From positions 3,701 to 67,700 of the forward strand of contig JAKZRT010000011.1 in the NCBI GenBank assembly GCA_047518005.1: DNA of 64,000 nt, in the 5' to 3' direction. Within the stretch, counting starts at the first letter, position 1. Each line of letters starts with the position of its first letter. This document shows positions 305 through 44,300 of this stretch, one piece after another. The notes beneath the pieces are model-generated. The model saw only the letters and a list, made by a program, of their open reading frames with translations, searched no databases and was not told the DNA's origin. This DNA is from Brevirhabdus sp. GTDB lineage: Bacteria; Pseudomonadota; Alphaproteobacteria; Rhodobacterales; Rhodobacteraceae. The position numbers and the translations under genes are program-made.

Positions 305-2007
305 CACGCGGATACCTGTTCGCGCAGGATTGACGCGGTGAGCGATAGCATCAGATAGAGGCCCGAAAATATCAGGAAGGCCAGGACGGTGTTCTCGAAC
401 GCGCGCGGATAGGCGGCCTCGTCCGGGGCGGTCGGACTCACCCCCAGCAGCAGATAGCGCACCTGGCGGTTGGCCTCGATCCGGGCGGTCTCCAACTGTT
501 GCAGCGATTGCGCGAACATCATCTGGCGCGTTTCAAGTTCGGATTCAGAAATGACCAGCTCGCCGGATATTCGCGCCAGCGACGCGCCGCCGCCAGTGCC
601 TTGGGTCATCTCGGCGCGCATCTCGGCGATCAGCGCTTCCAGTCGCCCGATAGTGCGTTTGGCGACATCGACCTTGGTCTGATTGGGACGGGCGTTGTCC
701 TGCAGCGATTGCAGCGAAAGACGCTGTTGTTTGAGTTGAACCTCAAAGGTTGAAATCTGCGTCATCAGCGAGCTCACCTCAGCCTCGGCTGACAAGACGC
801 CGCGTGCCTCTTGCAAGTCCAATACGCGTTTCTGGGCATCCAGCATTTTCAGTTCGGCATCGTCGTAGCTTTCCAGGGCCCCGGCCATCTGATCGTGTCG
901 AATTCTCTGGGTCAGCTGATCCACCTGTTCTTCGGCATAGGCGATCAGGGCAAGCGAATAATCACGGCTGACGTCCGGGTCGGCGGCAATGACTTCCATT
1001 CGCACGATGCCCTCGGTCGGGTCATAGCCAATGCGCACGCTGCGCTGATACCGTCGATAGGCGGCCTCGTTGGTGCCATCGGCGTCCAGCCTTTGCAGGG
1101 GGTCGATCTTTGGGTCGGAAAAATGCGCTTTGAACCCCAGGTCAGCGTCCAGCCGCAGCATCGCTTCGCGGGACTGGAGATAGCTCTGAACAGCAATCGA
1201 ATCCTGCGAATTCGCCAGGCTGGTGCCTGCCAGCAGGCTGCTGGCGGCGCTTTGTGCGGGGGCGTCGGCTTGTTGGATAAGAAATTGAGAATTGGTCGCG
1301 TACATCGGCGTCGCAATCGCCGAATAGTACACGCTTGCCGCAATGGTCGGGGCCGCTACAAAGGCAAATATCCGCGCCCCAAGGCCAATCAAATTGCGAC
1401 GCCTGCGCACCGCAATGTCCTGCTGCATTCGCATAATTTCGGCGGCGCGCCGGTCTTGGGCTTTTTCGGGTGCGCTCGGCACCGGGACCGGCGGCGACTT
1501 GGCAATCTGGGGCAGCACATTTGGAGCGACCGCCACGGCACCCGTGGCGCTGCCGCCCTCACCCGCGACAGGCAGTGTCTTGGGGGGTACGATTTGCAAG
1601 CGGTTTTTGCCAAATGGATCAACACCCTGCGCGCGCAGGGCCGCGACTGCTTCGGCGTCGGTGTTGGCCTTTATGCCACGGCGCGTCGCCAATCGGCGGG
1701 CCAATCGCATTTGGCGGGCCGTAGGTTCACCCGTCTTGGGCATTGGGGCCAATGGCTTTGCGGTGCCGTTACCCGGGGCAGGGGGCATGTCCGTTTCGCC
1801 AGACCCTGCACCAGGGTCGGTCCGAGCGGCAGCGCCCGCAGCCTTCGCAACCGACTGGGCGTCGGTCTTGCTGGTAACCGGCGCGCTGTTGCCGGTGCCA
1901 GCAGCCTTGGCGGGCTCTGGCACCGGCACGCCCGAAGCGGTCGTCCTCTCGGCCAGACCAAGCGACTTGCGCACCCGAAACTTTTTGGCTCTAGGCTTGG
2001 TATTCAT
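304..2007 (-). CDS. kpsE: Capsule polysaccharide export inner-membrane protein, KpsE/CtrB (Wzz-like) family, with a long Ala/Pro-rich N-terminal extension
   Basis: ORF 304..2115. The C-terminal two-thirds (SQFLIQQAD...IAVQSYLQSREAMLRLD...coiled coil...C-terminal TM) reads as KpsE-type. Start re-picked at MNTKPRAKK (2007), leaving a 17-nt overlap with the kpsT stop. Confidence 0.75.
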   Translation of the reverse strand: MNTKPRAKKFRVRKSLGLAERTTASGVPVPEPAKAAGTGNSAPVTSKTDAQSVAKAAGAAARTDPGAGSGETDMPPAPGNGTAKPLAPMPKTGEPTARQMRLARRLATRRGIKANTDAEAVAALRAQGVDPFGKNRLQIVPPKTLPVAGEGGSATGAVAVAPNVLPQIAKSPPVPVPSAPEKAQDRRAAEIMRMQQDIAVRRRRNLIGLGARIFAFVAAPTIAASVYYSAIATPMYATNSQFLIQQADAPAQSAASSLLAGTSLANSQDSIAVQSYLQSREAMLRLDADLGFKAHFSDPKIDPLQRLDADGTNEAAYRRYQRSVRIGYDPTEGIVRMEVIAADPDVSRDYSLALIAYAEEQVDQLTQRIRHDQMAGALESYDDAELKMLDAQKRVLDLQEARGVLSAEAEVSSLMTQISTFEVQLKQQRLSLQSLQDNARPNQTKVDVAKRTIGRLEALIAEMRAEMTQGTGGGASLARISGELVISESELETRQMMFAQSLQQLETARIEANRQVRYLLLGVSPTAPDEAAYPRAFENTVLAFLIFSGLYLMLSLTASILREQVSA

Positions 2008-2644
2008 AAAGCGATTGTGCCTCTTCCAGACTATCAAACATATAAAGTTTTCCGTCCCGCAGTACAGCCGCCGTCCGGCAGAATTTTTCCAGCGTTTCGG
2101 GCTGATGCGACACAACGATCACCGTGGTCTTTTCAAACCGCTCTTTCAGAATGGCGCCAGCCTTTTTGTTGAATTCAACATCCGTTGTCGACGGCATGCC
2201 TTCGTCGATCAGATAGATGTCGAAATCCAGTGCCAGCATCAGCGAAAAACAGAACCGTGCCCGCATGCCCTGGCTAAAGGTGCCGACCGGCATTTCAAAA
2301 TATTCGTCAAGTCCGCACAGCCAGCGGCTGAAGGCTTCGACATAATCCGGGTCAAGTCCGTACAGACGGGCAATATATCGGGCGTTTTCCTGGGCTGTGT
2401 GTCGATCGACGACACCGCCCATGAAGCCAAGCGGAAAAGACACGCGGCACCACCGTCGCACCTCGCCCTCGTCAGGTTTCTCCAGGCCCGCCATCATGTT
2501 GATTATCGTGGTCTTACCGGCACCGTTTGGCGCCAGAATCCCCAGCGAATTTCCAAGCTCCACGCGAAACGACGCCTGATCAAGAATGACCTTGCGCTGT
2601 TTGCCAGTCCAAAAGGACTTGCTGACGTTTCGAAACTCCAGCAT
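1991..2644 (-). CDS. kpsT: Capsule polysaccharide export ABC transporter, ATP-binding protein
   Basis: 217 aa with a Walker A (APNGAGKTT), KpsT-like length and a position next to kpsE. ATG verified at 2644-2642. Confidence 0.85.
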   Translation of the reverse strand: MLEFRNVSKSFWTGKQRKVILDQASFRVELGNSLGILAPNGAGKTTIINMMAGLEKPDEGEVRRWCRVSFPLGFMGGVVDRHTAQENARYIARLYGLDPDYVEAFSRWLCGLDEYFEMPVGTFSQGMRARFCFSLMLALDFDIYLIDEGMPSTTDVEFNKKAGAILKERFEKTTVIVVSHQPETLEKFCRTAAVLRDGKLYMFDSLEEAQSLYEYQA

Positions 2645-2737
2645 TCAAAAACTGATCCTGCCGACTGCACGCACCTGTTCTAGAGGTTTTTGGTTAACGC
2701 GTACTAATTGCCTCATCTACACTGTATTATGCGCGGA

Positions 2738-2771
2738 AAACCGCAACTTAATCAATCGCTCTGTGCGGTTT
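2738..2771 (-). terminator. Possible weak intrinsic terminator after nhaA
   Basis: 8-bp stem AAACCGCA/TGCGGTTT with an 18-nt loop. On the minus strand the 3' arm ends in UUU followed by UCC. The long loop and short U tract make it weak. Confidence 0.3.
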
Positions 2772-2824
2772 CGGCGCCGTCGCAGCTTCACCATTTCCAC
2801 CAACGCAGACCGCGAAAAATACAC

Positions 2825-4123
2825 CTAAACAGGTTGCCTTTCCACGCGGAACACCCGGCCAACGACAATTGCAATACCCGCAGCGAAGAAACTCAACAGC
2901 GCGCCCATTTTGGCGGCGTCCTGCACCTCGCCCGGCGGGAAGGCGACCGCAGCGAGGAAAAGGGCCACCGTAAAGCCGATTGCGGCCACGCAACCGATCA
3001 CAAACAAGTCCCTGACGCGCATGCCGTTGGGCAGTCCAAGTTGCAGCGGCACGGCGGCGATCCAGCCCAGGCAAAGCACGCCGAAAGGCTTGCCCACCAA
3101 CAGGCCCAAGAGAACCAGCCAGGTCGGCGAAGATATGGCCGAAAATTCAACCCCCGCATTCAATAGACCGAACATGAACAAAACGACCTCGACGGGGTAT
3201 CTCAGCATATGCTCGGCCTGGTTCAGAAGGTCGGTCAGATAGGTCTCGGCCTCTGAGAAGAAGCCGAATGCCCGATCCGCGTGGGGAATCGCCGGGATGA
3301 CCGGCAACAACCCAAGCGACGGGTGAATCCCGGCCTTGGCAAAGCCAAACCAGCTCAGCGCCCCGGCAACGGCGTAGGGCCAAACCGACAGGGTTTTGCG
3401 GAGCCTGGTCGAGACCGGCCGCAACTCGCGTTCGTCGTCCAGTTTTCGGGGCAGCCAGTTGAAGACCAGATAGACCGCAACTGCCGCGCCTACCGAAAGC
3501 AACAGCCACTCCAGCGCCAAATCACCGGTGGGATAGAAAACCGCAATGATGATCAGGCCGGCCGCGTCGTCGGCGATGGCCAGCAACAATAGGAACCGCA
3601 CCGCCGGGTGGCCGGCGCCAAAGACGATGCGCCCGACAAGATAGGAAAAGGCAATATCCGTCGCGGTCGGCACCGCCCATCCGCGCGCCACCGCGTCGTA
3701 AACGTCCGACCCAAGGAATGCCGCAAGACCAAGATAAACCGCCACCGGCCCCAACATGCCGCCGACCGTCGCGAAAAGCGGTGTGATGGCTTTTCTGCCT
3801 CGAAGCGAGCCGTTTTTTAGGATAATCGCTTCCCAAACCTCCTTGCCCGCGATGGCGAAGAAAAGCGCCATCAGCATGTCGTTGACCAAGTAGTGCAAAC
3901 TGATGACCCTTGTGGCCTCGCCAATTGCGAATTGCTCATAGCCGTGACCGAACGACGCTTTCCAATTGGTCACGTTCAGGCCGATCAAGTCGTTGAAAAT
4001 CAAGGGGTATTCAGCAAAGTGATGAAAGCTCTCGGCGTTCGAATTGGCCCAGACAAGCGCGATCAGCGCGCCAGAAATCAACATCAGCGAATAGTCGGTG
4101 ACAAAATTCCACACGCGGTACAT
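2825..4123 (-). CDS. nhaA: Na+/H+ antiporter NhaA
   Basis: 432-aa polytopic membrane protein that reads as NhaA family throughout (MYRVWNFVTDYSLMLISGALIALVWANS...). ATG verified at 4123. Confidence 0.9.
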   Translation of the reverse strand: MYRVWNFVTDYSLMLISGALIALVWANSNAESFHHFAEYPLIFNDLIGLNVTNWKASFGHGYEQFAIGEATRVISLHYLVNDMLMALFFAIAGKEVWEAIILKNGSLRGRKAITPLFATVGGMLGPVAVYLGLAAFLGSDVYDAVARGWAVPTATDIAFSYLVGRIVFGAGHPAVRFLLLLAIADDAAGLIIIAVFYPTGDLALEWLLLSVGAAVAVYLVFNWLPRKLDDERELRPVSTRLRKTLSVWPYAVAGALSWFGFAKAGIHPSLGLLPVIPAIPHADRAFGFFSEAETYLTDLLNQAEHMLRYPVEVVLFMFGLLNAGVEFSAISSPTWLVLLGLLVGKPFGVLCLGWIAAVPLQLGLPNGMRVRDLFVIGCVAAIGFTVALFLAAVAFPPGEVQDAAKMGALLSFFAAGIAIVVGRVFRVERQPV

Positions 4124-4236
4124 GCACGGGGCTCCCTGCCTCTGGTCCCTGGCCGGTGATTAGAGGATGCGCCAGCGCACCGCAAGACCGCTGCCGCGCT
4201 GTTGACACTGGGTGAACACTGCTGGATTTGAAGCCC

Positions 4237-6555: not shown

Positions 6556-7695
6556 CTATCTTGGCCGATGGACATGCGCCGACTGGATCAACCCGAAGGC
6601 CCCCAGCAGCACCAGCATCGCCGAGCCGCCATAGCTGACCAGCGGCAGCGGCACACCGACCACCGGGGCCAGACCCATGACCATCGACATGTTGACGGCA
6701 AAATAGAGGAAGAAGGTGGCGGCAATGCCCCAGATCAACAGCGACGAATAGCGCGACGGGTTCGCCAGTGCGCTCAGGATGCAAAACAAAAGGATCAGCG
6801 CATACAGCACCAACAGCGACATGCCTCCGACAAAGCCGAATTCTTCGGCCAGCGTGGTGAAGATGAAATCGGTGTGCTTTTCGGGCAGGAAATTCAGCCG
6901 CGACTGAGTGCCTTGCATAAATCCGCGCCCGCTCCACCCGCCGGACCCAAGGGCAATCTTCGACTGGGTGATGTGGTATCCGGCCCCCAATGGGTCGGTC
7001 GACGGGTCAAGAAACGTGTCGATGCGCCGAAACTGATAATCCTCCAGCAACTGCCATTCGGTGCCGCGCGACACGAAAACGCTGGTGATCAGGGCGCCGA
7101 CCATGGCGATGACGGCGGCAAAATAAAGGATGTGGACGCCGGCCAGAAACATCAGAATTCCGCCCCCTGCCAGCAGCAGAATGGCGGTTCCAAGATCGGG
7201 CTGTTGCAGAACCATCGCGGTCGGGATCAGGGTCAGCGCGATCGGCAGCGCCACCCACAAGGGGCGCGACACTTTGGCCATCGGCAACCAATCGTAATAG
7301 GCCGCCAGCGCCATGATCAGCGCAATCTTGGTCACTTCCGAGGGCTGAAACCGCAGGAAACCAAGATCGATCCAGCGCTGCGCGCCCATCCCGACGCTGC
7401 CAAAGAAATCAACCGCCAACAACAAGCCCAATGACCCCAGATAGGCCAGAAATGACATATTGCGCCAAAACCATATCGGCACCATCGCCACCGCGAACAT
7501 AATCCCCATGCCCACAAGAAACCGCTTGAACTGGGGTTCGACCCAGGGGCTGACCGACCCTCCGGCGACCGAGAAAAGCTGCACCAGCCCCATGAAAACC
7601 ACTGCCGTCAGCAACAGGATCAGCGGCCAGTTCAGATAGAGAACTTTTGACGCCCCGGCCGGGACCCGCTTTACGGTGTATTCCAGATAGGTCAC
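6556..7695 (-). CDS. rodA: Rod-shape-determining peptidoglycan glycosyltransferase RodA (FtsW/RodA/SpoVE family)
   Basis: 379-aa polytopic protein in the conserved position after mrdA. The GTG start at 7695 overlaps the mrdA stop (GTGA). Confidence 0.9.
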   Translation of the reverse strand: MTYLEYTVKRVPAGASKVLYLNWPLILLLTAVVFMGLVQLFSVAGGSVSPWVEPQFKRFLVGMGIMFAVAMVPIWFWRNMSFLAYLGSLGLLLAVDFFGSVGMGAQRWIDLGFLRFQPSEVTKIALIMALAAYYDWLPMAKVSRPLWVALPIALTLIPTAMVLQQPDLGTAILLLAGGGILMFLAGVHILYFAAVIAMVGALITSVFVSRGTEWQLLEDYQFRRIDTFLDPSTDPLGAGYHITQSKIALGSGGWSGRGFMQGTQSRLNFLPEKHTDFIFTTLAEEFGFVGGMSLLVLYALILLFCILSALANPSRYSSLLIWGIAATFFLYFAVNMSMVMGLAPVVGVPLPLVSYGGSAMLVLLGAFGLIQSAHVHRPR

Positions 7696-25679: not shown

Positions 25680-26294
25680 TTACTGGTCGGTCGAAGTTCC
25701 GCCGTCGGATTCAGGTGCTGTCTCGGGCACGATCAGCGATGAACCGCCTTCGCAATTCGCCATCAGGTCGGCGTAGCGGGCCAGAATCCATTCGGGCGCT
25801 TCCACAGGAATGCTCTCGTTCAGTTGGTCCAGGACGCGCTGGAAAATGCGCGCGGTCTGGCTGTCGTCGATCATCGGGGTGGGCTGGGTCGAAACGATCC
25901 GGTCATAGACGACCAGGGCAATAGCCACCAGAATAACGCCGCGTGCCACGCCGAATAGAAACCCGACCGCCTGATCCAGCCCGCTGACAGCCGACCTTTT
26001 CACAGCACTTGCAAAAAGTGGTGTGAAGATCGACAGCACCAACAGTCCGACGGTAAAGACCGCGGCAAAGGCGGCAACGGTTGCAAGTTCGCAGCTGTCG
26101 GTAAGAAACTCGCCGACAACGGGGATCTCTTTGACCAGAGGCTCCAGTTGCGGGGCAAAGTAATAAGCCGCAATCGCGGCGGCGATCCAGGCAAATATCG
26201 CCAGGGTTTCGCGAATGAATCCACGCGCATAGGCCAATATCCCGGAAACCAGAACAATGACTGCGACGCCTCCGTCAAGCGCTGTAAATTCCAT
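25680..26294 (-). CDS. cvpA: CvpA-family membrane protein (colicin V production protein homologue)
   Basis: Small polytopic protein immediately upstream of purF, which is the conserved cvpA-purF arrangement. ATG verified at 26294. Confidence 0.8.
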   Translation of the reverse strand: MEFTALDGGVAVIVLVSGILAYARGFIRETLAIFAWIAAAIAAYYFAPQLEPLVKEIPVVGEFLTDSCELATVAAFAAVFTVGLLVLSIFTPLFASAVKRSAVSGLDQAVGFLFGVARGVILVAIALVVYDRIVSTQPTPMIDDSQTARIFQRVLDQLNESIPVEAPEWILARYADLMANCEGGSSLIVPETAPESDGGTSTDQ

Positions 26295-26315
26295 TGGCCT
26301 ACTCCTTGGCTGGCC

Positions 26316-27680
26316 TCAACCCGCCCCAAATATTTCTCCGACCAATGCCGCGAGATCAGGGATTTCCTCAACCCTGATGCCCTTTGGCGCGCCGTTTTTT
26401 GCCGACCTCGGTGATAGCGCAACCGAAAAACCCAGTTTTCGGGCTTCTTTCAGCCTGCTTTCGGTTTGCGCAACGGGCCGTAACGCCCCTGATAAGCTAA
26501 TCTCGCCAAAAACCACAGTCTCTGCGGGCAGGGCTGCGTCTTCTCTGGCCGAAAGTAGCGCCGCGGCCACAGCCAGATCGGCCGCTGGTTCGCTGACGCG
26601 CAGGCCGCCGGCGACGTTCAGATAGACATCCAGCCCGGTAAACGGGATGCCACAGCGCGCCTCGAGCACCGCCAGAACCATCGCCAGCCGGCCAGCGTCC
26701 CATCCGACAACGGTGCGACGCGGCTGCGCGTGTGGCGTCGGCGCGACAAGCGCCTGAAACTCCACCAGAACCGGGCGCGTGCCCTCGATTCCGGCAAACA
26801 CAACCGAACCGGGCGATGGGGTGCCGCGTTCGGAAAGGAACAGCGCCGAGGGGTTCGGAACCTCGGCCAGTCCGGCGCCGGTCATCTCGAACACACCGAT
26901 TTCGTCGGCCGGGCCAAAGCGATTTTTGACCGCGCGCAAAATCCGGAACTGGTGCCCGCGTTCGCCCTCGAAATAAAGCACCGTGTCAACCATATGTTCG
27001 ATCACGCGGGGGCCAGCGATCTGGCCGTCTTTGGTGACATGGCCGACCAGCACCACCGCCACGCCGCGCGACTTGGCGAACCGCGTCAACTCGTGCGCCG
27101 CAGCACGGACCTGGGCCACCGACCCCGGCGCGCTTTCGATAGTGTCCAGCCACATGGTCTGGATCGAATCGATCACCACCAGGTCGGGGCGTTCGCGGTC
27201 AAGCGTGGTCAGAATGTCGCGTAGGGCGGTTGCAGTGGCGATTTGCACCGGCGCGTCTTTCAGGCCCAGACGCTCGGCCCGCAGGCCGATCTGGGCGCGC
27301 GCTTCTTCGCCCGAGATATAGATAACTTTTTGACCAGCCTCGGCAAATTTCGCTGCCGCCTGCAACACAAGCGTCGATTTGCCGATCCCCGGATCGCCGC
27401 CGACCAAAAGCGCCGAGGCCGGAACCAGCCCGCCGCCAAGCGCCCGATCAAACTCGGCGATACCCGAGGCGGTGCGCGGTGGCGGCGCGTCGTCGCCCGA
27501 CAGCTCCGCCAATTCGATGCCCGAACTGCGCCGCGTGCCCAGCCCCTTGCCCTTGGGGCCTTCGGTCAGCGGCGCCTCCTCGACAATGGAATTCCATTCA
27601 CCGCAACCCTCACAGCGGCCCGACCATTTTGACGAGGCCGCGCCGCAGGACTGGCAGACGAAAGTGGCGGATTTGGCCAT
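26316..27680 (-). CDS. radA: DNA repair protein RadA/Sms
   Basis: MAKSATFVCQSCGAASSKWSGRCEGCGEWNS zinc finger, Walker A (GDPGIGKST) and a Lon-like C-terminus. ATG verified at 27680. Confidence 0.95.
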   Translation of the reverse strand: MAKSATFVCQSCGAASSKWSGRCEGCGEWNSIVEEAPLTEGPKGKGLGTRRSSGIELAELSGDDAPPPRTASGIAEFDRALGGGLVPASALLVGGDPGIGKSTLVLQAAAKFAEAGQKVIYISGEEARAQIGLRAERLGLKDAPVQIATATALRDILTTLDRERPDLVVIDSIQTMWLDTIESAPGSVAQVRAAAHELTRFAKSRGVAVVLVGHVTKDGQIAGPRVIEHMVDTVLYFEGERGHQFRILRAVKNRFGPADEIGVFEMTGAGLAEVPNPSALFLSERGTPSPGSVVFAGIEGTRPVLVEFQALVAPTPHAQPRRTVVGWDAGRLAMVLAVLEARCGIPFTGLDVYLNVAGGLRVSEPAADLAVAAALLSAREDAALPAETVVFGEISLSGALRPVAQTESRLKEARKLGFSVALSPRSAKNGAPKGIRVEEIPDLAALVGEIFGAG

Positions 27681-27681
27681 T

Positions 27682-28125
27682 TCATATCTTCCCGGTGGGT
27701 TTGCTGGCCATGCCGATGGCAAGCGAGGCGAGAATGCAAAAGGTAAACAGATAAAGGCCCCAGGCGACCTCGACCCGGCCAATGCCGACGCCCTTGGCCA
27801 GGACAATGTAAAGCGCGATCAAGAAGATATCGGCCATGGCTAACCTTCCCAGCCAGCCCAGAACCGACACCACATCGCGGCGAACGAGTCCATAATGGAC
27901 CAGCGCCAGACCGACAGTTTTGACGTAGGGCGCGAAAATGGCGAAAACGGCCACGACAAGGGCCAGCAAGACGTCGGTCTCCCAAAGGGATTTCAGGCCG
28001 GAGATAACCGAGATTTCGCCGAGGCCAAAGAGCGGCAACAGCCCGGCCCGCATCAGCGGCGCGAACCACGAGATTGGGAAGAGGATGAGCAGGCTCAGGT
28101 TGGCCAACGTCAACGCGCGCTTCAC
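27682..28125 (-). CDS. PqiA-family (paraquat-inducible protein A-like) single-domain membrane protein
   Basis: Start re-picked at the GTG at 28125, which overlaps the mlaF-like stop (GTGA). LGRLAMADIFLIALYIVLAK resembles the conserved WGMAEIFL... block of PqiA, and there are about 4 TM segments. Confidence 0.65.
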   Translation of the reverse strand: MKRALTLANLSLLILFPISWFAPLMRAGLLPLFGLGEISVISGLKSLWETDVLLALVVAVFAIFAPYVKTVGLALVHYGLVRRDVVSVLGWLGRLAMADIFLIALYIVLAKGVGIGRVEVAWGLYLFTFCILASLAIGMASKPTGKI

Positions 28126-28868
28126 CGCACTGCCTCGATCGGCCCGTCCGCCGACCCCCGAATGAACTGTGCCAGATAAGGGTCTGACCCGCCTTCCATA
28201 TCTCCGACCGGTCCGGTCCATTGAATGACCCCGTCGTGCAGCATCGCCACGGTGTCGGCGATGGCGTGAACGCTGGACATATCGTGGGTTATGGTGACCG
28301 CTGTCGCGCCCATTTCGACCACGATCTCGCGGATCAGTTCGTTGATCACACCGGCCATGATCGGGTCGAGACCGGTGGTGGGCTCGTCGAAAAAGATGAT
28401 CTTCGGCTCGGCGGCAATCGCCCGGGCAAGGCCGACGCGTTTTTGCATGCCTCCGGACAGTTCGGCCGGGAAGAGGTCGGCGGCTTCGGGCCCGAGGCCG
28501 ACGCGGCGGAGTTTTTCGATGGCGATTTCACGGGCCTCACGCGGCGGACGCTTCAACGCCCCGCGCAGCAAGCGAAAAGCCACGTTCTGCCAGACCGGCA
28601 GGCTGTCAAACAGCGCGCCGCCCTGAAAAAGCATCCCGAACTGCGCCAGAAACGCCTCGCGGTCGCCGCTGGCCACGTCCTGACCGCCGACCGTGATCGT
28701 GCCTGCGTCGTGCCGGATCAGCCCCAGAATGCATTTGATTGTCACCGACTTCCCGGTGCCCGATCCGCCGATGATCACCAGACTGGTGCCCGCGTCCACG
28801 TCCAGGTCAACGCCCGCCAGAACCGGCGTGCCGCCAAACGCTTTATGGACTGCCTGAAGTCTGATCAT
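28122..28868 (-). CDS. mlaF: Mla-type ABC transporter ATP-binding protein
   Basis: 248 aa with Walker A (GGSGTGKS), signature LSGGMQKR and Walker B (IIFFDEP). MlaF-like length and paired with an MlaE-like permease. Confidence 0.85.
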   Translation of the reverse strand: MIRLQAVHKAFGGTPVLAGVDLDVDAGTSLVIIGGSGTGKSVTIKCILGLIRHDAGTITVGGQDVASGDREAFLAQFGMLFQGGALFDSLPVWQNVAFRLLRGALKRPPREAREIAIEKLRRVGLGPEAADLFPAELSGGMQKRVGLARAIAAEPKIIFFDEPTTGLDPIMAGVINELIREIVVEMGATAVTITHDMSSVHAIADTVAMLHDGVIQWTGPVGDMEGGSDPYLAQFIRGSADGPIEAVR

Positions 28869-28873
28869 AGTAA

Positions 28874-29521
28874 TTACTCGTTAGATTCAGGCGCAGGTAG
28901 AGCATGAATTTCCTCTGGAGCCGGTATTTGATCGTATTGAGAAATATTTTTCCGTGCAATTTGGTTCACTTCCGTCATGCGATCAACCAAAGGTTTGATA
29001 TCCTTTCCAAATTTTCCGAGAACCTCTCCTATGTCGCTAACGCCACCTCTTACAACGTCAAACATTCCCTTTGGTTTATGAACTTCAGACTCAATTGCAG
29101 CTATCCTATTAAGTAGTCGGCGACGATGCGGTTCATCGAATTCCGGAGTGCCAAATATGATTTTTCTCATCTGGTTGCATAGGTGAAGCACGCGTTCGCG
29201 GTCACCGGCGTCCAAGATGAATTTGGGCAAAAGCGCGTCTTCCGATAGTTCGGATGCTCCAGAATTCCTAAACTCTGCAGGGACGGCATCGTGAACGTTC
29301 AATATCCGAACGAGACGTTCAAAGAGAATGCGACGGCTATCTGATGACCCGTGAAATTTGAAATCATTGGCAACCGCTTGAAAATGCCTTGGAAACTCCT
29401 TCCACACTATGCCATATATGTAGGCCAACTCATCAAAATCTGCTTGCGAAAGCCTTGCGGGATCACGGCCTTCATAGGTTCGAATCAATTCGACTAACGT
29501 AGATGCAAGTTCAGAGTACAT
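28874..29521 (-). CDS. AT-rich ORFan, hypothetical soluble protein (215 aa), probably horizontally acquired
   Basis: The ORF-track start at 29533 is a TTG. The ATG at 29521 has GGAGAA 6 nt upstream. About 40% G+C by hand count with A/T-ending codons throughout. No family recognised. Confidence 0.7.
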   Translation of the reverse strand: MYSELASTLVELIRTYEGRDPARLSQADFDELAYIYGIVWKEFPRHFQAVANDFKFHGSSDSRRILFERLVRILNVHDAVPAEFRNSGASELSEDALLPKFILDAGDRERVLHLCNQMRKIIFGTPEFDEPHRRRLLNRIAAIESEVHKPKGMFDVVRGGVSDIGEVLGKFGKDIKPLVDRMTEVNQIARKNISQYDQIPAPEEIHALPAPESNE

Positions 29522-29553
29522 TAGGTTCTCCAATTAAGTCGCGAATAAATTGA

Positions 29554-30336
29554 TCAAATCGAGAAGAAAATCCCTGTTAGCAGATAGTTAGAGGCCAATA
29601 TTAAGACCGATGCCGAGACCACGGCATTGGTCGTGGCGCGCCCGACACCGCGCGCGCCGCGTCCCGAATGCATGCCGTGGTAACACCCCATCAGCGCCAC
29701 GATGAACCCAAAGACCGCCGCCTTGATCAGCCCCGAGGTAACATCGGCGATTTCCAGAAAATCGGCGGTGTTCTGCAAATAGGTGGACCCATTGAACCCC
29801 AGCCGCGTCACGCCCACCAGATAACCGCCCATGATGCCAATGATGTCGCCGACAAAGGCCAGCGCGGGCATCGCCAGCGTGGCCGCCAAAACACGGGGAA
29901 CTGTGAGGTATTTCATGGGGTTGGTGGACAAAGTTACCAGCGCGTCGATCTGCTCGGTCACTTTCATCGTACCAATCTCGGCGGCAATTGACGCGCCCAC
30001 GCGGCCCGCAACCATCAGCCCGCCTAGCACCGGCCCCAACTCGCGCACCATGGCGATGGCCACGACCGAGGGCACCACCGCCTCGGCCGAGAACCGCGCA
30101 CCTCCGTCAAAGATCTGCAAGGCCAGCGCGCCGCCGGTGAAAAGTGCTGTCAGGCCGACCACTGGAAGGCTGAAATATCCAATGTGCAAAAGCGCATGCA
30201 CGAATTCCTTAAAGTAGAAAGGCGGGCGCAGCAGGTGGCTGACCGCGTCGACGCCATAAAGCGTCACCCGCCCGATCGCCGCCACCAGCACCAGCGTCGA
30301 GCGGCCGATGGCGGCAAGGACGGCGACGGGGTTCAT
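29554..30336 (-). CDS. mlaE: Mla-type ABC transporter permease
   Basis: 260 aa that reads as an MlaE-family polytopic permease. The ATG at 30336 overlaps the alr stop (ATGA). The last ~15 codons switch to AT-rich usage. Confidence 0.85.
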
Positions 30337-31382
30337 TGCACGCGCCCGACATAGCGTCGGTCGTAACGCGCCCCGAGCGCCGTCAGCACCTCGTAACCGA
30401 TTGTCCCTGCCGCTTCGGCCAGCACATCGACGCCTTGCGAAGGGCCCAGAATTTCAACCGTGTCCGGCACGCGCTCCAGATCGCTGACATCGACGGTCAG
30501 AAGGTCCATCGACACCCGACCAACCAGCGGACAGGCCAGACCATCGGCAAAAACCCGGGCCGACGCGCCCATGGCACGGATCAGACCGTCGGCGTAACCG
30601 GCGGCCACCGTCGCAATTCGCGCCGGCGCTGGCGCTGTCCATGCGTTGGCATAGCCCACGGTCTCGCCGGTCTCGACCTCGCGTACCTGGATCACCGGCA
30701 GGTTCAGCGTGACAACAGTCCGGGCCTCGGTGAAGGGCAGGCCGCCATAAAGGCCGACGCCGGGTCGCGTCAGGTCAAAGTGATACTCCTCGCCCAGCAA
30801 AATACCCGCCGTTGCCGCCAGCGACCGGGGCACGGCGGTGTCGTCGGTCATGGCCCGGAAGGTCGCCAGTTGCCGGGCGTTCATTGGGTGGTCAGGGGTG
30901 TCGGCGCAGGCCAGGTGGCTGATGATCAGGTCCGGCCCGGCCTCCAGCGCGGTGCGGGCAACGGCCGTCCATTCCCCGGGTTCCATGCCCAGCCGGTTCA
31001 TGCCGGTGTCCAGCTGAATGCCAAACGCCGCCGATGAAAGCGATTCGAAGTGCCGCGTCAATTGCGCGATGGAATTCAAAACCGGCACCAGTCCGAGATC
31101 GCTGATGGTATCGGTATCGCCCGCCATATGGCCCGCAAAGACGAATATTTCCGGATCGGGTCCGATGCCCTGACGCAGACCGGCACCTTCTTCCACGGTG
31201 GCCACAAAAAAGCGCCGCGCACCGGCTGCGGCCAGTGCCCGACCAACCCGGCCCGCGCCCAGCCCGTATCCGTCGGCCTTGACCACAGCGCCGGTCTGGA
31301 CCGCCGTGTCCGACCGCTGGTCAAGCGCGCGCCAGTTCGCGCAGATCGCGTCGAGGTCGATTGTCAGGGTGCCACGGGCCAT
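30333..31382 (-). CDS. alr: Alanine racemase
   Basis: [20 protein letters not shown]..., the PLP-lysine region [11 protein letters not shown] and alanine racemase C-terminal domain features. ATG verified at 31382. Confidence 0.9.
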
Positions 31383-31433
31383 GTGGGTGGTTTTCCTGCA
31401 TGCGGGCTCAAGGTCAAGGGGCAACAGACCGCC

Positions 31434-32936
31434 CTATTCGAACCCACCGGGTGGCCGCGCCTGCCACGGCTTGGCCAGATTGCCGAACCGCGTGAACCGG
31501 CCCTCGAAGCTGAGCTCGACCGAACCTATGGGCCCGTGGCGCTGTTTGCCGATGATGACCTCGGCCTTGCCGTGGATCGCCGCCATCATCTCCTGCCATT
31601 CGGCCATCGCCTCAAGGTCGTGGTCGCCGGGCTTTTCGCGTTCGCGGTAATATTCTTCGCGGAAGATAAACATCACCACATCGGCGTCCTGTTCGATCGA
31701 ACCCGATTCGCGCAGATCGGAAAGCTGGGGCCGCTTGTCTTCGCGGTTTTCGACCTGCCGCGAGAGCTGGCTGAGGGCCAGCACCGGAATATCCAGCTCT
31801 TTGGCGATGGCTTTCAAACCCTGGGTAATCTCGCTGACCTCATTGACGCGGTTGTCCTTGGCTGACGCGGGGCGCACAAGCTGAAGATAATCGACGATCA
31901 AAAGATCCAGCCCATGCGTGCGTTTCAGCCGCCGCGCCCGCGCCGCCAGCTGGCTGATCGGCAGCGCCGGTGTGTCGTCGATATAAAGCGGGCAGGCCTC
32001 AAGGGTTTTGGCGGCCTCGACAAAGCGCCGAAACTCGCCCTCGGTCATGTCGCCGCGCCGGATCTGGTCCGACGGCACCTGGGATGCCTCGGACAGGACC
32101 CGCGCCGCCAGCTGTTCGGCGCTCATCTCGAGGCTGAAAAACCCGACCACGCCGCCGTTGACCGCGCCTTCGGTCCCATCGGGCAGCGCGCCGCGCTGAT
32201 AGGCCTTGGCCACCGCAAACCCGATGTTGGTCGCAAGTGCTGTTTTGCCCATCGAAGGGCGTCCGGCCAAAATCAGCAGGTCGGACCGGTGCAGCCCGCC
32301 CAGTTTGCGGTCGATATCGCTGAAGCCGGTTGCCAGACCGGCCAGACCACCATCGCGCTGGAAGGCGGCGTTGGCGACGTTCACCGCGTCGGTCACCGCC
32401 TTCAGGAACGACTGAAACCCGCTGTCGGTCACACCAGCCTCGGAAAGCTTGTAAAGCGCCGCTTCGGCCTCGACGATCTGCGCGGCAGGCTCGCTTTCGA
32501 CCTCGACCCGCGCCGCCTTGGCCGAAATATCGCGCCCCAGCCCGATCAGTTCACGCCGGATCGCCAGGTCATAGATCATCTGGGCATAGTCGCGCACCGC
32601 AAAGGCCGATATGGCCGCCCCCGCCAGGCGCGCCAGATAGGCGGGTCCGCCCAGTTCGGCCAGACCTTCGTCGTCTTCGAAGAAGGCCTTCAGCGTGACC
32701 GGCGAGGCCAGCGCGTTTTTCTGGATGCGCGCCGCCGCGACTTCGTAAATCTGTGCGTGTACCGGGTCAAAGAAATGCGCCGGTTTGATGATCGACGCGA
32801 CCCGATCGTACAGATCGTTGTTGGTCAGGATCGCGCCCAACAGCTGTTGCTCGGCTTCGATATTGTGGGGCTGGGTTTCAGCCTCCTGTGCCTCGGCCGC
32901 TGCCCCGCCGCCCGAAATTGCCGCAATCGTATTCAT
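31434..32936 (-). CDS. dnaB: Replicative DNA helicase
   Basis: 500 aa with PHNIEAEQQLLGAIL, Walker A (GRPSMGKTALA) and DnaB C-terminal motifs. ATG verified at 32936. Confidence 0.95.
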   Translation of the reverse strand: MNTIAAISGGGAAAEAQEAETQPHNIEAEQQLLGAILTNNDLYDRVASIIKPAHFFDPVHAQIYEVAAARIQKNALASPVTLKAFFEDDEGLAELGGPAYLARLAGAAISAFAVRDYAQMIYDLAIRRELIGLGRDISAKAARVEVESEPAAQIVEAEAALYKLSEAGVTDSGFQSFLKAVTDAVNVANAAFQRDGGLAGLATGFSDIDRKLGGLHRSDLLILAGRPSMGKTALATNIGFAVAKAYQRGALPDGTEGAVNGGVVGFFSLEMSAEQLAARVLSEASQVPSDQIRRGDMTEGEFRRFVEAAKTLEACPLYIDDTPALPISQLAARARRLKRTHGLDLLIVDYLQLVRPASAKDNRVNEVSEITQGLKAIAKELDIPVLALSQLSRQVENREDKRPQLSDLRESGSIEQDADVVMFIFREEYYREREKPGDHDLEAMAEWQEMMAAIHGKAEVIIGKQRHGPIGSVELSFEGRFTRFGNLAKPWQARPPGGFE

Positions 32937-42005: not shown

Positions 42006-42306
42006 CGCTCAACTCCACTTGCTTGCCGTGGGCGTAATTCGACGGCCCGCGACGGCGGAATTCTTCGCGGAAATGGGTGGGTTCGGGGCCGGATGCGCCG
42101 TCGGCTGCATCGGCGAGATAGGCGCCAACAGCAACGGCCGGTTCGGCCTCGGCGCGCGCAAGGCCCGCGTTTGCCGAAAGTTCATCGACAAAAAGTGCGG
42201 CACCATGCAGGTCGCGCGTCCAGGCGCCCTTGGCGTCCAGATAGATCACGTCGCCTTCCAGCAGATCGTTGGCGGTGACGACTTTCGGCGTAAAGCGGCG
42301 GGCCAT
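41998..42306 (-). CDS. DUF2849-family protein
   Basis: 102 aa (MARRFTPKVVTANDLLEGDVIYLD...) between cysG and cysI. Its start shares one base with the cysG stop (TAATG), and its stop overlaps the cysI start by 8 nt. Confidence 0.75.
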   Translation of the reverse strand: MARRFTPKVVTANDLLEGDVIYLDAKGAWTRDLHGAALFVDELSANAGLARAEAEPAVAVGAYLADAADGASGPEPTHFREEFRRRGPSNYAHGKQVELSDV

Positions 42307-43700
42307 TACGCAAGCTCCTGTTGGTTATCTGCTTCCAGCGCCTGCACAGCGCCGCGCGGGGCCAGCCCATGAAAGATCAACGCCGGTCCGCTCAGACCGG
42401 CGCGGCTCAGCGCTGGTTCCAGCTCAGCCAGCGTGGTGGCCAGAATGCGCTGATCGGGGCGGCTGGCGTTTTCGACAATGCTCACCGGCGTCGCGGGATC
42501 AGCCCCGTGCATCAGCATGCGCCCTTGCCAGAACCGCGCCGTGCGCTTGCCCATGTAAATCGCGGCCACTTCGCCGGGGCGCGCCAGGCCGCGCCAGTCG
42601 TGTTCGGCAAAGCCGCGCATGTCGTGGCCGGTCAGCATGCGCACCGAAGAATTGCGCCCGCGCTTGGTCAGGCTTTCGCCCAGCGCCGCCGCCGCCGCCG
42701 AGGCGGCGGTTATTCCCGGCACAATCGCCCAGCTGATATCGGCGGCCTCAAGGGCCTCGATTTCTTCATCAAGGCGACCAAAGACCGTCGGATCGCCCGA
42801 CTTCAGGCGCACCACTTGGGCACCCTTGGCCGCGTGCTCGACGAGCAGGCTGTTGATCGTGGCTTGTGGGGTCGAAGCGCCAAAGCCCGCTTTGCCGACG
42901 GATATGATTTCCGCCTCGCGGCGGGCAAGCTCCAGAATTTCCGGTGCCACCAGCCGGTCGTGAATGACCACATCGGCGGCGTCGAGCGCGGCGCGGGCTT
43001 TCAGCGTCAAAAGCTCGGGGTCGCCGGGTCCGGCACCGACCAGATCAACATGGCCGGGCCGGGTCGCCGTCCGGAATTTTTCGATTAGATCGGCCAGCGC
43101 ATATTTTGCCGCCGCCGCTCCGCCCCGGGCCAGCGCCCGTGGACCGTGTTCAAAGTAAAACGCCTGCCAGAACGCCCGGCGCAGTCCGCCTCCCGGCAAA
43201 GCCTCGGCCGCACCGCGCGCCGCTTTGCCGATGCGCGCCAGCAGCCCAAGCGTGGCGGGCAGGCGGGCTTCGACGTCGCGCTTGATGGCGCGCGCCAGAA
43301 CCGGGGCAGCGCCTTCGGTGCCGATGGCCACGGTCACCGGGTCGCGGTCGACGATCGCGGGCGTGATAAAGCCACTTTGGTCGAGGTTATCGACGACATT
43401 GACCAGAACCCCGGCGGCCCGCGCAAGGGCCGCGATGCGCCTGTCCTCGGCGTCGTCCTCGGTCGCGGCATAAACCAGGGCAGCACCGCCGATATCGGCA
43501 CCGGTCAACGGGCGGCCAAAAAGGCTAATCTGGCCCGCATCGGCCAGTGCCGCGATCTCGGCGCGCGGGGTGGGTGCAAAGACATCAACGCGCGCGTTGG
43601 TTTTCGCGATCAGGCGCACCTTGGCCAACGCCGCCGCGCCGCCACCCGACAAGACGACGCGCTGGCCGTCGAGGTCTATGAAGATCGGAAAATGTCGCAT
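42306..43700 (-). CDS. cysG: Sirohaem synthase (precorrin-2 dehydrogenase/ferrochelatase plus uroporphyrinogen-III C-methyltransferase)
   Basis: MRHFPIFIDLDGQRVVLSGGG N-terminal domain and a GAGPGDPELLTLKA methylase domain. ATG verified at 43700, so the track start at 43766 is too far upstream. Confidence 0.9.
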   Translation of the reverse strand: MRHFPIFIDLDGQRVVLSGGGAAALAKVRLIAKTNARVDVFAPTPRAEIAALADAGQISLFGRPLTGADIGGAALVYAATEDDAEDRRIAALARAAGVLVNVVDNLDQSGFITPAIVDRDPVTVAIGTEGAAPVLARAIKRDVEARLPATLGLLARIGKAARGAAEALPGGGLRRAFWQAFYFEHGPRALARGGAAAAKYALADLIEKFRTATRPGHVDLVGAGPGDPELLTLKARAALDAADVVIHDRLVAPEILELARREAEIISVGKAGFGASTPQATINSLLVEHAAKGAQVVRLKSGDPTVFGRLDEEIEALEAADISWAIVPGITAASAAAAALGESLTKRGRNSSVRMLTGHDMRGFAEHDWRGLARPGEVAAIYMGKRTARFWQGRMLMHGADPATPVSIVENASRPDQRILATTLAELEPALSRAGLSGPALIFHGLAPRGAVQALEADNQQELA

Positions 43701-43838
43701 GTCATTCGAGTCCTTGAACCTGATACAATATATAGAATAAAGTTCCAAATAACTGCTATACTTCACGACAAATAAGAACGTATGTTCTAAACACCCGAGA
43801 AAACGGAACGAAACAACGTGGAAATCAGAGGTTAAGGA

Positions 43839-44300
43839 ATGTCGATCCGTATTGATGACATAGACCGGAAAATTCTTTCGGAATTACAGGCTGACGCGGC
43901 CCGTTCGCTGGATGAGATCGCCAAACGCGTGGGGTCGTCGAAAACCCCGGTCTGGAACCGCATCCGCAAATTGCGCGAGGCCGGCGTGATCCGGCAGAAT
44001 ACGGTGCTGCTGGACGCCGATATGCTTGGGCTCGAGGCCTGCTTTTTCGTGCTGATCCGCACATCAGAACACGAAAAGGACTGGCAGGACAGGTTTCTTG
44101 ACGCCCTGAATTCACGTCCCGAAGTCATGGAGGCACACCGTTTGGCGGGCGATATCGATTACATTCTCAAGGTCCGGGTCGCCAATGCGCGCGCCTATGA
44201 CACATTCTACCAGGCGCTGATATCCGAAGTGCGGATTTATAACGTCACCGCGCTGTTATCGATGGAAGAGATCAAGTCGACGACAATGTTACCGCTTTGA
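43839..44300 (+). CDS. Lrp/AsnC-family transcriptional regulator
   Basis: 153 aa. IDDIDRKILSELQADARRSLDEIAKRVGSSKTPVWNRIRKL is the HTH, followed by an RAM domain. ATG verified, preceded by AGAGGTTAAGGA. Confidence 0.9.
   Translation: MSIRIDDIDRKILSELQADAARSLDEIAKRVGSSKTPVWNRIRKLREAGVIRQNTVLLDADMLGLEACFFVLIRTSEHEKDWQDRFLDALNSRPEVMEAHRLAGDIDYILKVRVANARAYDTFYQALISEVRIYNVTALLSMEEIKSTTMLPL

Follow-up and report, generated by a model that had tools for sequence, protein, structure and literature searches.

A single AT-rich gene, here called X, lies between the mlaE-like and mlaF-like genes of a housekeeping operon in a 64,000-nt stretch of Brevirhabdus sp. DNA (the window), and it is very probably a mobile accessory cassette belonging to a real and widespread protein family. 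X is neither an ancestral member of the operon nor an orphan gene. Within the Rhodobacteraceae, as judged from the genomes and metagenome contigs compared here, it is a sporadic cassette of a few core-operon junctions, characterized by (i) intraspecific variation, (ii) replacement by other cargo, and (iii) co-transfer of fragments of the flanking genes. The explanation proposed below we consider, taken as a whole, to be moderately probable.

Gene X occupies a normally closed junction

X is an open reading frame (ORF) of 215 codons (28874-29521, minus strand; ATG to TAA in the ORF listing), and by our own estimate a frame of this length at 45% GC would arise by chance with a probability of ~5e-6. 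The whole insert, measured from the mlaE stop to the mlaF start, comprises 685 nt (28869-29553, minus strand; GC 0.448). It is flanked upstream by the mlaE-like permease gene (29554-30336, minus strand; Pfam MlaE, 1.4e-75) and downstream by the mlaF-like ABC ATPase gene (28122-28868, minus strand; Pfam ABC_tran, 5.5e-29). The frame and its placement at the mlaE/mlaF junction had been given in an earlier reading of the window (the original prediction), whose coordinates were reproduced, with Pfam confirming MlaE and ABC_tran.

Eighty species loci were fetched with the window MlaE (62-79% identity, Rhodobacteraceae/Paracoccaceae; loci and contigs are referred to by L numbers). Among these best of the matches listed, the mlaE and mlaF matches lie at most 20 nt apart in 75 of the 80, most with an ATGA stop/start overlap, and an X-family gene occurs in only two: Tabrizicola L072, in which X is found between mlaE and mlaF, and L007, which has a very distant member of 242 amino acids (aa) between mlaF and pqiA. 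The claim that X was inserted into a normally empty junction is therefore well founded. The mlaF-pqiA spacing of the same loci ranges from overlap to more than 2 kb, and several of these junctions hold other AT-rich inserts. Three loci (L022:5763-5880, L056:5754-5889 and L079:5769-5850) have GC-rich (0.68), non-coding DNA of 82-136 nt at the mlaE-mlaF junction in place of the ATGA overlap; these spacers may be scars or repeat elements.

In the species of the window X is fixed, being present on all 14 contigs with an identical MlaF (14/14). The strain-level copies (including L115-L120) are 99.5-100% identical and the frame is intact in all of them.

Positions of X across genomes and metagenome contigs

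The mla operon offers X two positions. X is located between mlaE and mlaF in the window and in L003, L072, L087, L097 and L101, and directly before mlaF in L088 and L090, where the upstream gene is off the contig or displaced. It is located between mlaF and pqiA in L001, L004, L094, L096, L098, L133-135 and L007, and directly after mlaF in L091, a contig that ends before pqiA. Other copies lie elsewhere: L105 has X directly before radA, and in L103 it was confirmed directly after the stop of a gene encoding a 653-aa GyrB/ParE-type protein (1957-3918), in the same orientation. The X copies of L089, L092 and L100 appear to follow a parE-type gene as well, judging from the same gene end (...QYIQENA.FVEELDV*); in L093 no more than its final few codons are visible. 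The copies of the parE site belong to the same subfamily and have no mla genes nearby.

The orientation of X is always that of the upstream gene, and X often overlaps the stop or start codons of its neighbours, many copies being joined to them by ATGA overlaps. The tree of X is star-like, with partial clustering by position. Downstream of X, L004 (5628-5830), L098 (4523-4700) and L091 (787-960) share a conserved element of ~170 nt that is non-coding and contains a long, GC-rich palindrome. It belongs to one clade of copies located between mlaF and pqiA, has no match in Rfam, and may be a terminator or an element of the repetitive extragenic palindromic or miniature inverted-repeat transposable type that travels with the cassette. 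The end of an insertion-sequence-like gene truncates X at its 5' side in the lineage of L090 (1-170), L106 and L108. The last of these, L108, had been taken for a distant mla operon with X, a reading that was withdrawn, as this is an error-rich copy of the L090 arrangement in which X is cut by the insertion sequence.

Exchange of alleles and cargo

Both the allele and its position vary within one species. Roseovarius indicus L003 carries allele P0015 between mlaE and mlaF, whereas L133-L135, which have the same species label and show the same synteny, carry allele P0048, 48% identical to P0015, between mlaF and pqiA and have an empty mlaE-mlaF junction. The flanks of L003 and L133-L135 form a mosaic pattern, with 90.5% identity upstream, 96% in mlaF and 97% downstream. 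An IS110-family transposase gene was also observed between mlaF and pqiA in L003.

The cargo may be replaced altogether. Two Roseovarius loci, L026 (a metagenome-assembled genome) and L097, have flanks of 91-94% identity; the mlaE-mlaF junction of L097 holds X, and that of L026 (2602-3084) holds an unrelated AT-rich ORF of 160 aa, which has a lipoprotein-like leader and overlaps both neighbours by ATGA. A further AT-rich insert of L026, between mlaF and pqiA (3827-4198), contains a membrane-like ORF of 123 aa, and neither of the two ORFs has a credible Pfam match. Two tandem cassettes are present between mlaF and pqiA of L007 (6438-7996), the first with a 104-aa ORF containing three hydrophobic segments and the other with the X-like gene of 242 aa. 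A chimeric ORF (6919-7197) links the two and is composed of duplicated fragments of the 5' end of pqiA (58 nt, 90% identical) and the 3' end of mlaF (91 nt, 89% identical), which argues that the cassettes travel with pieces of their neighbours.

How similar two loci are in X shows no correlation with how similar they are in MlaF (Mantel r=-0.04, p=0.59); L003 and L097, for example, share 92% identity in MlaF and 46% in X.

The X protein family

A word-indexed search yielded 56 homologues of X (44-68% identity), the named ones originating from Roseovarius, Ruegeria and Phaeobacter. Carriers that could be cultured include the Phaeobacter inhibens strains of GCA_025142795.1 and GCA_025142775.1, Ruegeria sp. 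SCP11 and Roseovarius indicus. A phmmer search over 1.84 billion representatives returned 616 clusters at E<=1e-3, 278 of them at E<=1e-10, with E=3.9e-55 for the best representative, and a profile of distant members gave 701 protein hits across several phyla. Named hits of this profile include Draconibacterium, Melioribacteraceae, Marisediminitalea, Burkholderiales and Candidatus Manganitrophus, the phyla and classes represented being Bacteroidota, Ignavibacteriota, Gamma- and Betaproteobacteria, and Nitrospirota. The description of X as an ORFan in the original prediction is thereby contradicted.

Conservation is unevenly distributed along the protein. The mean frequency of the commonest residue per column is 0.31 in the N-terminal half, 0.75 in residues 97-191 and 0.68 in the tail (residues 192-215). 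The conserved C-terminal domain of ~95 aa has the pattern ..F.L...D..R...L...MR.I......FD..H..RLL.R....E..HK..G..D......D.G...GKFG.D.KP..DR..E...I, which X follows, with invariant polar residues R, D, H, N, E and K; it is succeeded by the Pro-rich, acidic tail (consensus YDQIPAPEE.K.LP.P). A comparison of alleles gave identities of 0.54-0.81 at the first two codon positions and of 0.26-0.40, near random, at the third. Since the first two positions are kept while the third is near random, the alleles appear to be old and under long-term purifying selection, and at the level of sequence comparison X is shown to be a real, selected protein-coding gene of a widespread family.

The original prediction of a soluble, helix-rich product agrees with our analyses. 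The hydropathy of X reaches a 19-residue maximum of 0.61 and the isoelectric point is 5.7. The AlphaFold2 model (mean predicted local distance difference test score, pLDDT, 88.7) comprises two helical domains followed by the tail without regular structure, with ten helices and just two 2-residue strand/bridge marks. Modelled alone, the C-terminal domain forms a four-helix bundle (pLDDT 85, predicted template modelling score 0.74).

Distant members and mobile elements

Among the distant members, those of L006, L109-111 and L113 stand alone in unrelated neighbourhoods, each preceded by a spacer of its own (~300 nt), and that of L112 is part of an island that also encodes a resolvase and an integrase. 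A scan of IMG/VR, for which a tighter alignment (A4) was used, found the X family in 11 contigs. In L122 the X gene is placed between a cI/LexA-like repressor and an integrase, in L124 and L131 it is beside integrases, and in L129 beside an AAA_25 protein. In the inovirus-like contigs L125 (4037-6739) and L127 (3528-6903) X-family genes are immediately downstream of Zot, the inovirus assembly ATPase, and beside small helix-turn-helix genes. The L125 contig is only 7.1 kb long and could be a whole filamentous-phage genome.

No conserved partner gene was found beside X, as a toxin-antitoxin module would have: the neighbours differ in every context, and the AT-rich ORFs that precede X in L122 and in L126 are unrelated.

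Base composition of X and of the flanking gene ends

Among all 600-nt stretches of the 64 kb, that of X has the lowest GC content (0.452; mean 0.623, standard deviation 0.034), and in the X region the G+C content at third codon positions (GC3) is 0.416, compared with 0.74 +/- 0.04 in 77 high-GC3 ORFs. The ORF itself has a GC content of 0.455 and a GC3 of 0.407. Eight A/T-ending or rare codons listed in the original prediction account for 228/1000 codons in X and 84/1000 in five neighbour genes, a 2.7-fold difference. The unusual composition that had been noticed by eye thus stands, and the manual G+C counts behind it (24/60 and 24/60 for two lines of X, 41/60 for one of mlaF) were exact.

An AT-rich spill-over into both neighbouring genes had likewise been described. 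Both gene ends are indeed depleted, to a modest degree: the last 20 codons of mlaE (29557-29616, minus strand), a candidate recombination tract brought with X, have a GC content of 0.42 and a GC3 of 0.55 against 0.79 in the remainder of the gene (a drop of 0.24, the 2.6th percentile among 78 loci without X), and the GC3 drop of 0.29 in the first 12 codons of mlaF (28833-28868, minus strand) is the 2.7th percentile among 74 loci without X. The codons CAT AAA .. TTT at the start of mlaF, which had been counted as part of the spill-over, are also usual in loci without X. The depletion of the mlaE tail is absent from the other loci with X between mlaE and mlaF. The GC-depleted ends in the window fit recombination breakpoints within mlaE and mlaF. 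These GC3 percentiles and, to a greater extent, the duplicated mlaF and pqiA pieces of L007 favour the earlier suggestion that both ends were rebuilt by the incoming DNA.

A low GC content was observed in every locus of the family that was compared. In four genomes X has a GC content of 0.44-0.46 and a GC3 of 0.41-0.49, compared with ~0.63-0.93 in neighbouring genes and 0.74-0.93 in mlaE/mlaF; in 22 of 22 metagenome loci its GC content is ~0.05-0.20 under that of the rest of the locus, and distant family members are 0.04-0.17 under their surroundings. The alleles have diverged anciently, yet their GC3 remains 25-45 points under that of their hosts. Because synonymous sites are saturated between alleles, the low GC content is a maintained state, and the alien composition described in the original prediction is no sign of a recent arrival; as far as the alleles compared indicate, AT-richness is a standing property of the X family.

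Mutation is AT-biased, and GC-biased processes act on core genes. A rare accessory gene such as X would escape whatever keeps core genes GC-rich; in the simplest reading it seldom meets a homologous partner and would therefore stay near mutational equilibrium. Core genomes are more GC-rich than accessory genomes (PMC5303225). Alternative accounts of the low GC content are selection for rare codons and constant re-seeding from AT-rich elements.

Organization of the surrounding operon

On the minus strand, the gene order is dnaB (31434-32936), alr (30333-31424), mlaE, X, mlaF, a pqiA-like gene, radA and cvpA. The pqiA-like gene encodes a small membrane protein (27682-28125, minus strand; Pfam PqiA) and its GTG start codon and the stop of mlaF overlap in GTGA. 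In the region 25680-30336, radA and cvpA follow directly after the mlaE-mlaF-pqiA-like cluster, with no adjoining MCE-domain (MlaD/PqiB-type) gene, and by the lack of such a gene beside it the cluster differs from the Brucella MpcEFDA operon (PMC12436622).

The spacer between the mlaE stop (29554-29556, minus strand) and the X start (29522-29553, minus strand; 32 nt) is identical in strain-level relatives and contains a Shine-Dalgarno-like GGAGAA (29526-29531, minus strand) 4 nt 5' of the X ATG, in keeping with the earlier claim that X has its own ribosome-binding site. Only 5 nt (TTACT; 28869-28873, minus strand) separate the X stop from the mlaF ATG (28866-28868, minus strand). No promoter-like or terminator-like minus-strand site was found between mlaE and mlaF, and the proposal that X rides promoterless on the operon is upheld.

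Mobile machinery was said not to accompany X, which is also what we found: no integrase or transposase is encoded within 4 kb, the sole tRNA of the window (668-754) is 28 kb away, and no long flanking repeats were found around the insert, which has at its ends only a 6-nt direct repeat, TGATCA. The left copy (29551-29556, minus strand) consists of the mlaE stop TGA plus TCA and the right copy (28862-28867, minus strand) lies inside the mlaF start (ATGATCA). The pair may represent a duplicated ancestral ATGATC junction; as evidence it is weak, because TGA is required as a stop codon anyway. In the other loci with X between mlaE and mlaF, repeats of 4-6 nt occur around the ATGA at the junctions.

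The second lowest GC dip of the window (43600-43900; 0.395 in 200 nt) is a divergent intergenic region between two genes which, from their translations, we take to be cysG-like (42306-43766, minus strand) and to encode an Lrp/AsnC-like regulator (43839-44300, plus strand). It looks like an ordinary promoter region.

A model of cassette exchange

In the explanation that we favour, X sits in the normally ATGA-overlapped mlaE/mlaF junction and would be transcribed by read-through of alr-mlaE-mlaF-pqiA, with translation probably starting from its own GGAG site in the window and depending on translational coupling elsewhere. Homologous recombination in the conserved flanking genes would spread the cassette among Rhodobacteraceae, along with short stretches of the adjacent genes. 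Our guess at the vehicle is allelic replacement of the type carried out by gene-transfer-agent (GTA) particles, whose fragments of ~4.5 kb would fit the size of a 0.7-kb insert; RcGTA is described as moving ~4.5 kb fragments that are integrated by allelic replacement (PMC9690577). Elsewhere X would be mobile-element cargo, whose variable N-terminal half may recognise something, while the conserved C-terminal bundle and the Pro-rich tail may dock onto a conserved cell component or act as an effector.

As the family is cargo of predicted integrative elements, hypervariable in its N-terminal half and conserved in its C-terminal domain and tail, a stand-alone conflict protein seems to us the likeliest function, and a role in superinfection exclusion, defence or another interplay of mobile element and host is tentatively proposed from these features. 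For the defence or addiction role suggested in the original prediction, what support there is comes from the position of distant members in such elements. The fullest form of the proposal, in which X founds a new single-protein conflict family whose Rhodobacteraceae branch is a promoterless cassette swapped with unrelated cargo at mlaE-mlaF, mlaF-pqiA and the 3' end of parE, is speculative and rather unlikely to hold in all its parts.

Several points weigh against this explanation. The 80 loci used for comparison, the best of those listed, sample the group and do not amount to a census. Two junctions of one small operon hold X-family genes, including the distant L007 member; chance insertion fails to predict such a pattern, which requires either a hotspot or a functional tie to the transporter. 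Searches of Pfam, NCBIfam, PADLOC and PHROGs with X and 34 distant members returned only coiled-coil noise, a PDB profile search gave no match under E=0.03, and the best Foldseek matches of the whole model and of the C-terminal domain in PDB and BFVD (E 0.04-0.5) were generic helical bundles. A tblastn search of X and one distant member against sequenced phage and plasmid records gave no match, so the link to mobile elements concerns predicted integrative elements alone, and X is close to a contig edge in several of these. The involvement of GTA particles is a conjecture. As regards the two junctions, a hotspot is supported by the presence of other cargo at the same sites.

Alternative explanations

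The functional tie would be realized if X served the MlaFE-type transporter in the manner of MlaB, as a cytoplasmic accessory subunit or as a regulator. Such a role would account for the repeated targeting of the mla operon, where the family occupies two junctions of the same three-gene unit (the very distant L007 member among them), and would suit the translational coupling of many copies through ATGA overlaps as well as the envelope-like character of other junction cargo (the putative lipoprotein and the small membrane ORFs). Against it stand the presence of X in only two of the 80 related species (best of those listed), the occurrence of the same subfamily directly after parE with no mla genes nearby, and the distant members, which are lone genes or mobile-element cargo, again away from mla. 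Moreover, the predicted structure of X is all-helical, no STAS domain was matched in Pfam, the characterised alphaproteobacterial MpcEFDA operon is described with four genes and no cytoplasmic accessory (PMC12436622), and the hotspot has direct support from unrelated cargo. We therefore consider a transporter subunit improbable.

Were X instead an ancestral operon member lost by most lineages, with its composition due to selection on X, one could understand why the alleles cluster partly by junction, why their divergence is ancient, third codon positions being saturated, and why X is fixed in the species of the window. Such a history is very improbable. A presence in two of 80 loci would need dozens of independent losses, X occupies several different positions, allele and position both vary within Roseovarius indicus, an unrelated gene replaces X in L026 where the flanks are 91-94% identical, and the distances of X and MlaF are uncorrelated.

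We give equally little credence to X as a selfish gene that drives its own spread into gene junctions and co-converts the flanks, in the manner of a free-standing homing endonuclease. The junction-precise insertion, the sporadic distribution, the GC-depleted flank ends in the window, the short direct repeats around ATGA and the invariant polar residues (R, D, H, N, E, K) of the C-terminal domain would all suit such an element. No nuclease family or fold was detected in Pfam, NCBIfam, PHROG or Foldseek searches, and distant members are ordinary cargo at unrelated sites; since unrelated cargo uses the same junctions, the behaviour of the sites is independent of X.

A spurious ORF, or a gene in decay that no longer functions, is still less probable. 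X does use codons ill suited to its host, and in one lineage (L090, L106 and L108) it is cut by an insertion sequence, but its frame is intact in all strain-level copies, the protein is conserved in several phyla, its codon positions diverge in a pattern typical of selection, and its fold is predicted with confidence. Finally, the hint at a HEPN-type RNase toxin, taken in the original prediction from a single R-x4-H string (RILNVH, residues 72-77), was dropped because the string is not conserved (the H at position 77, in the variable half, is kept in 2/44 close homologues of alignment A1 and 3/34 distant ones of A2), and with no HEPN family match, no Foldseek match at E<=0.001 (HEPN fold included) and no partner gene its probability is negligible.

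Significance and comparison with known systems

The analysis adds a widespread family (616 clusters, several phyla) that is unmatched in the family, structure and defence libraries searched. With its variable N-terminal half, conserved C-terminal domain and mobile-element neighbours, it is a reasonable candidate for a new function in conflicts with phages or mobile elements. The tight ATGA junctions of a housekeeping operon can serve small promoterless genes as exchange points, and the unit transferred has in one case taken along parts of the flanking genes. If the fullest form of the proposal is true, housekeeping operons would contain miniature cassette sites of an undescribed kind, at which allelic replacement of the GTA or transformation type takes place, and these junctions would become a test bed for why accessory genes remain AT-rich in GC-rich genomes. 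The old, diverged alleles of low GC3 would provide a clean case in which to test biased gene conversion and selection as explanations of AT-rich accessory genes.

Among defence systems, the PADLOC 2.0 models gave no match to X of the window at E<=10, and distant members reached only 10-17 bits. Three of these match positions 169-228 of the candidate model PDC-M14B (E 0.005-0.013, ~13-14 bits), which is a lead only; X of the window differs in lacking any match, and our literature search found no paper naming this candidate model. MlaB, the STAS-domain partner of MlaF (PMC7367683), resembles X in being a small cytoplasmic protein encoded within the mla operon. In contrast, X is all-helical in the model and without a STAS match, is present in ~2-3% of related species, and also occurs away from mla.

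The seg and mob homing endonuclease genes of phages are similar to X in their location between conserved genes, patchy distribution and altered flank ends, features that are not specific to X; X differs in having no GIY-YIG, HNH, LAGLIDADG or PD-(D/E)xK signature or fold. Integron cassettes, like X, are promoterless single ORFs, often AT-rich, that use an upstream promoter. X of the window was rejected as such a cassette, as there is no room for attC (5 nt downstream, 32 nt upstream) and no integrase within 4 kb. The palindrome after X in L004, L098 and L091 was also considered as attC and rejected; on reading the alignment it has an RYYYAAC-like start without a proper GTTRRRY partner.

Parallels are also found in prophage morons, or lysogenic-conversion cargo, which are likewise single AT-rich, sporadic genes between conserved genes; the distant members of L112, L122, L124, L125, L127 and L131 lie within predicted prophages or islands beside an integrase, repressor or Zot. 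In contrast to morons, X of the window has no promoter or terminator of its own, is placed in a housekeeping operon without a surrounding prophage, and belongs to a family that matched no sequenced phage record. Capsule and O-antigen switching involves flexible islets that are exchanged by homologous recombination in conserved flanks. The X loci share with such islets, and with GTA-type allelic replacement (PMC9690577), alternative non-homologous content, mosaic flanks, duplicated flank fragments and uncorrelated identities of X and MlaF. They differ in that the exchanged unit is very small (~0.65 kb, one gene), is placed inside a translationally coupled stop/start overlap and recurs at three or four defined junctions. 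The X family is unmatched in the libraries searched, and its behaviour as a junction cassette is unusual.

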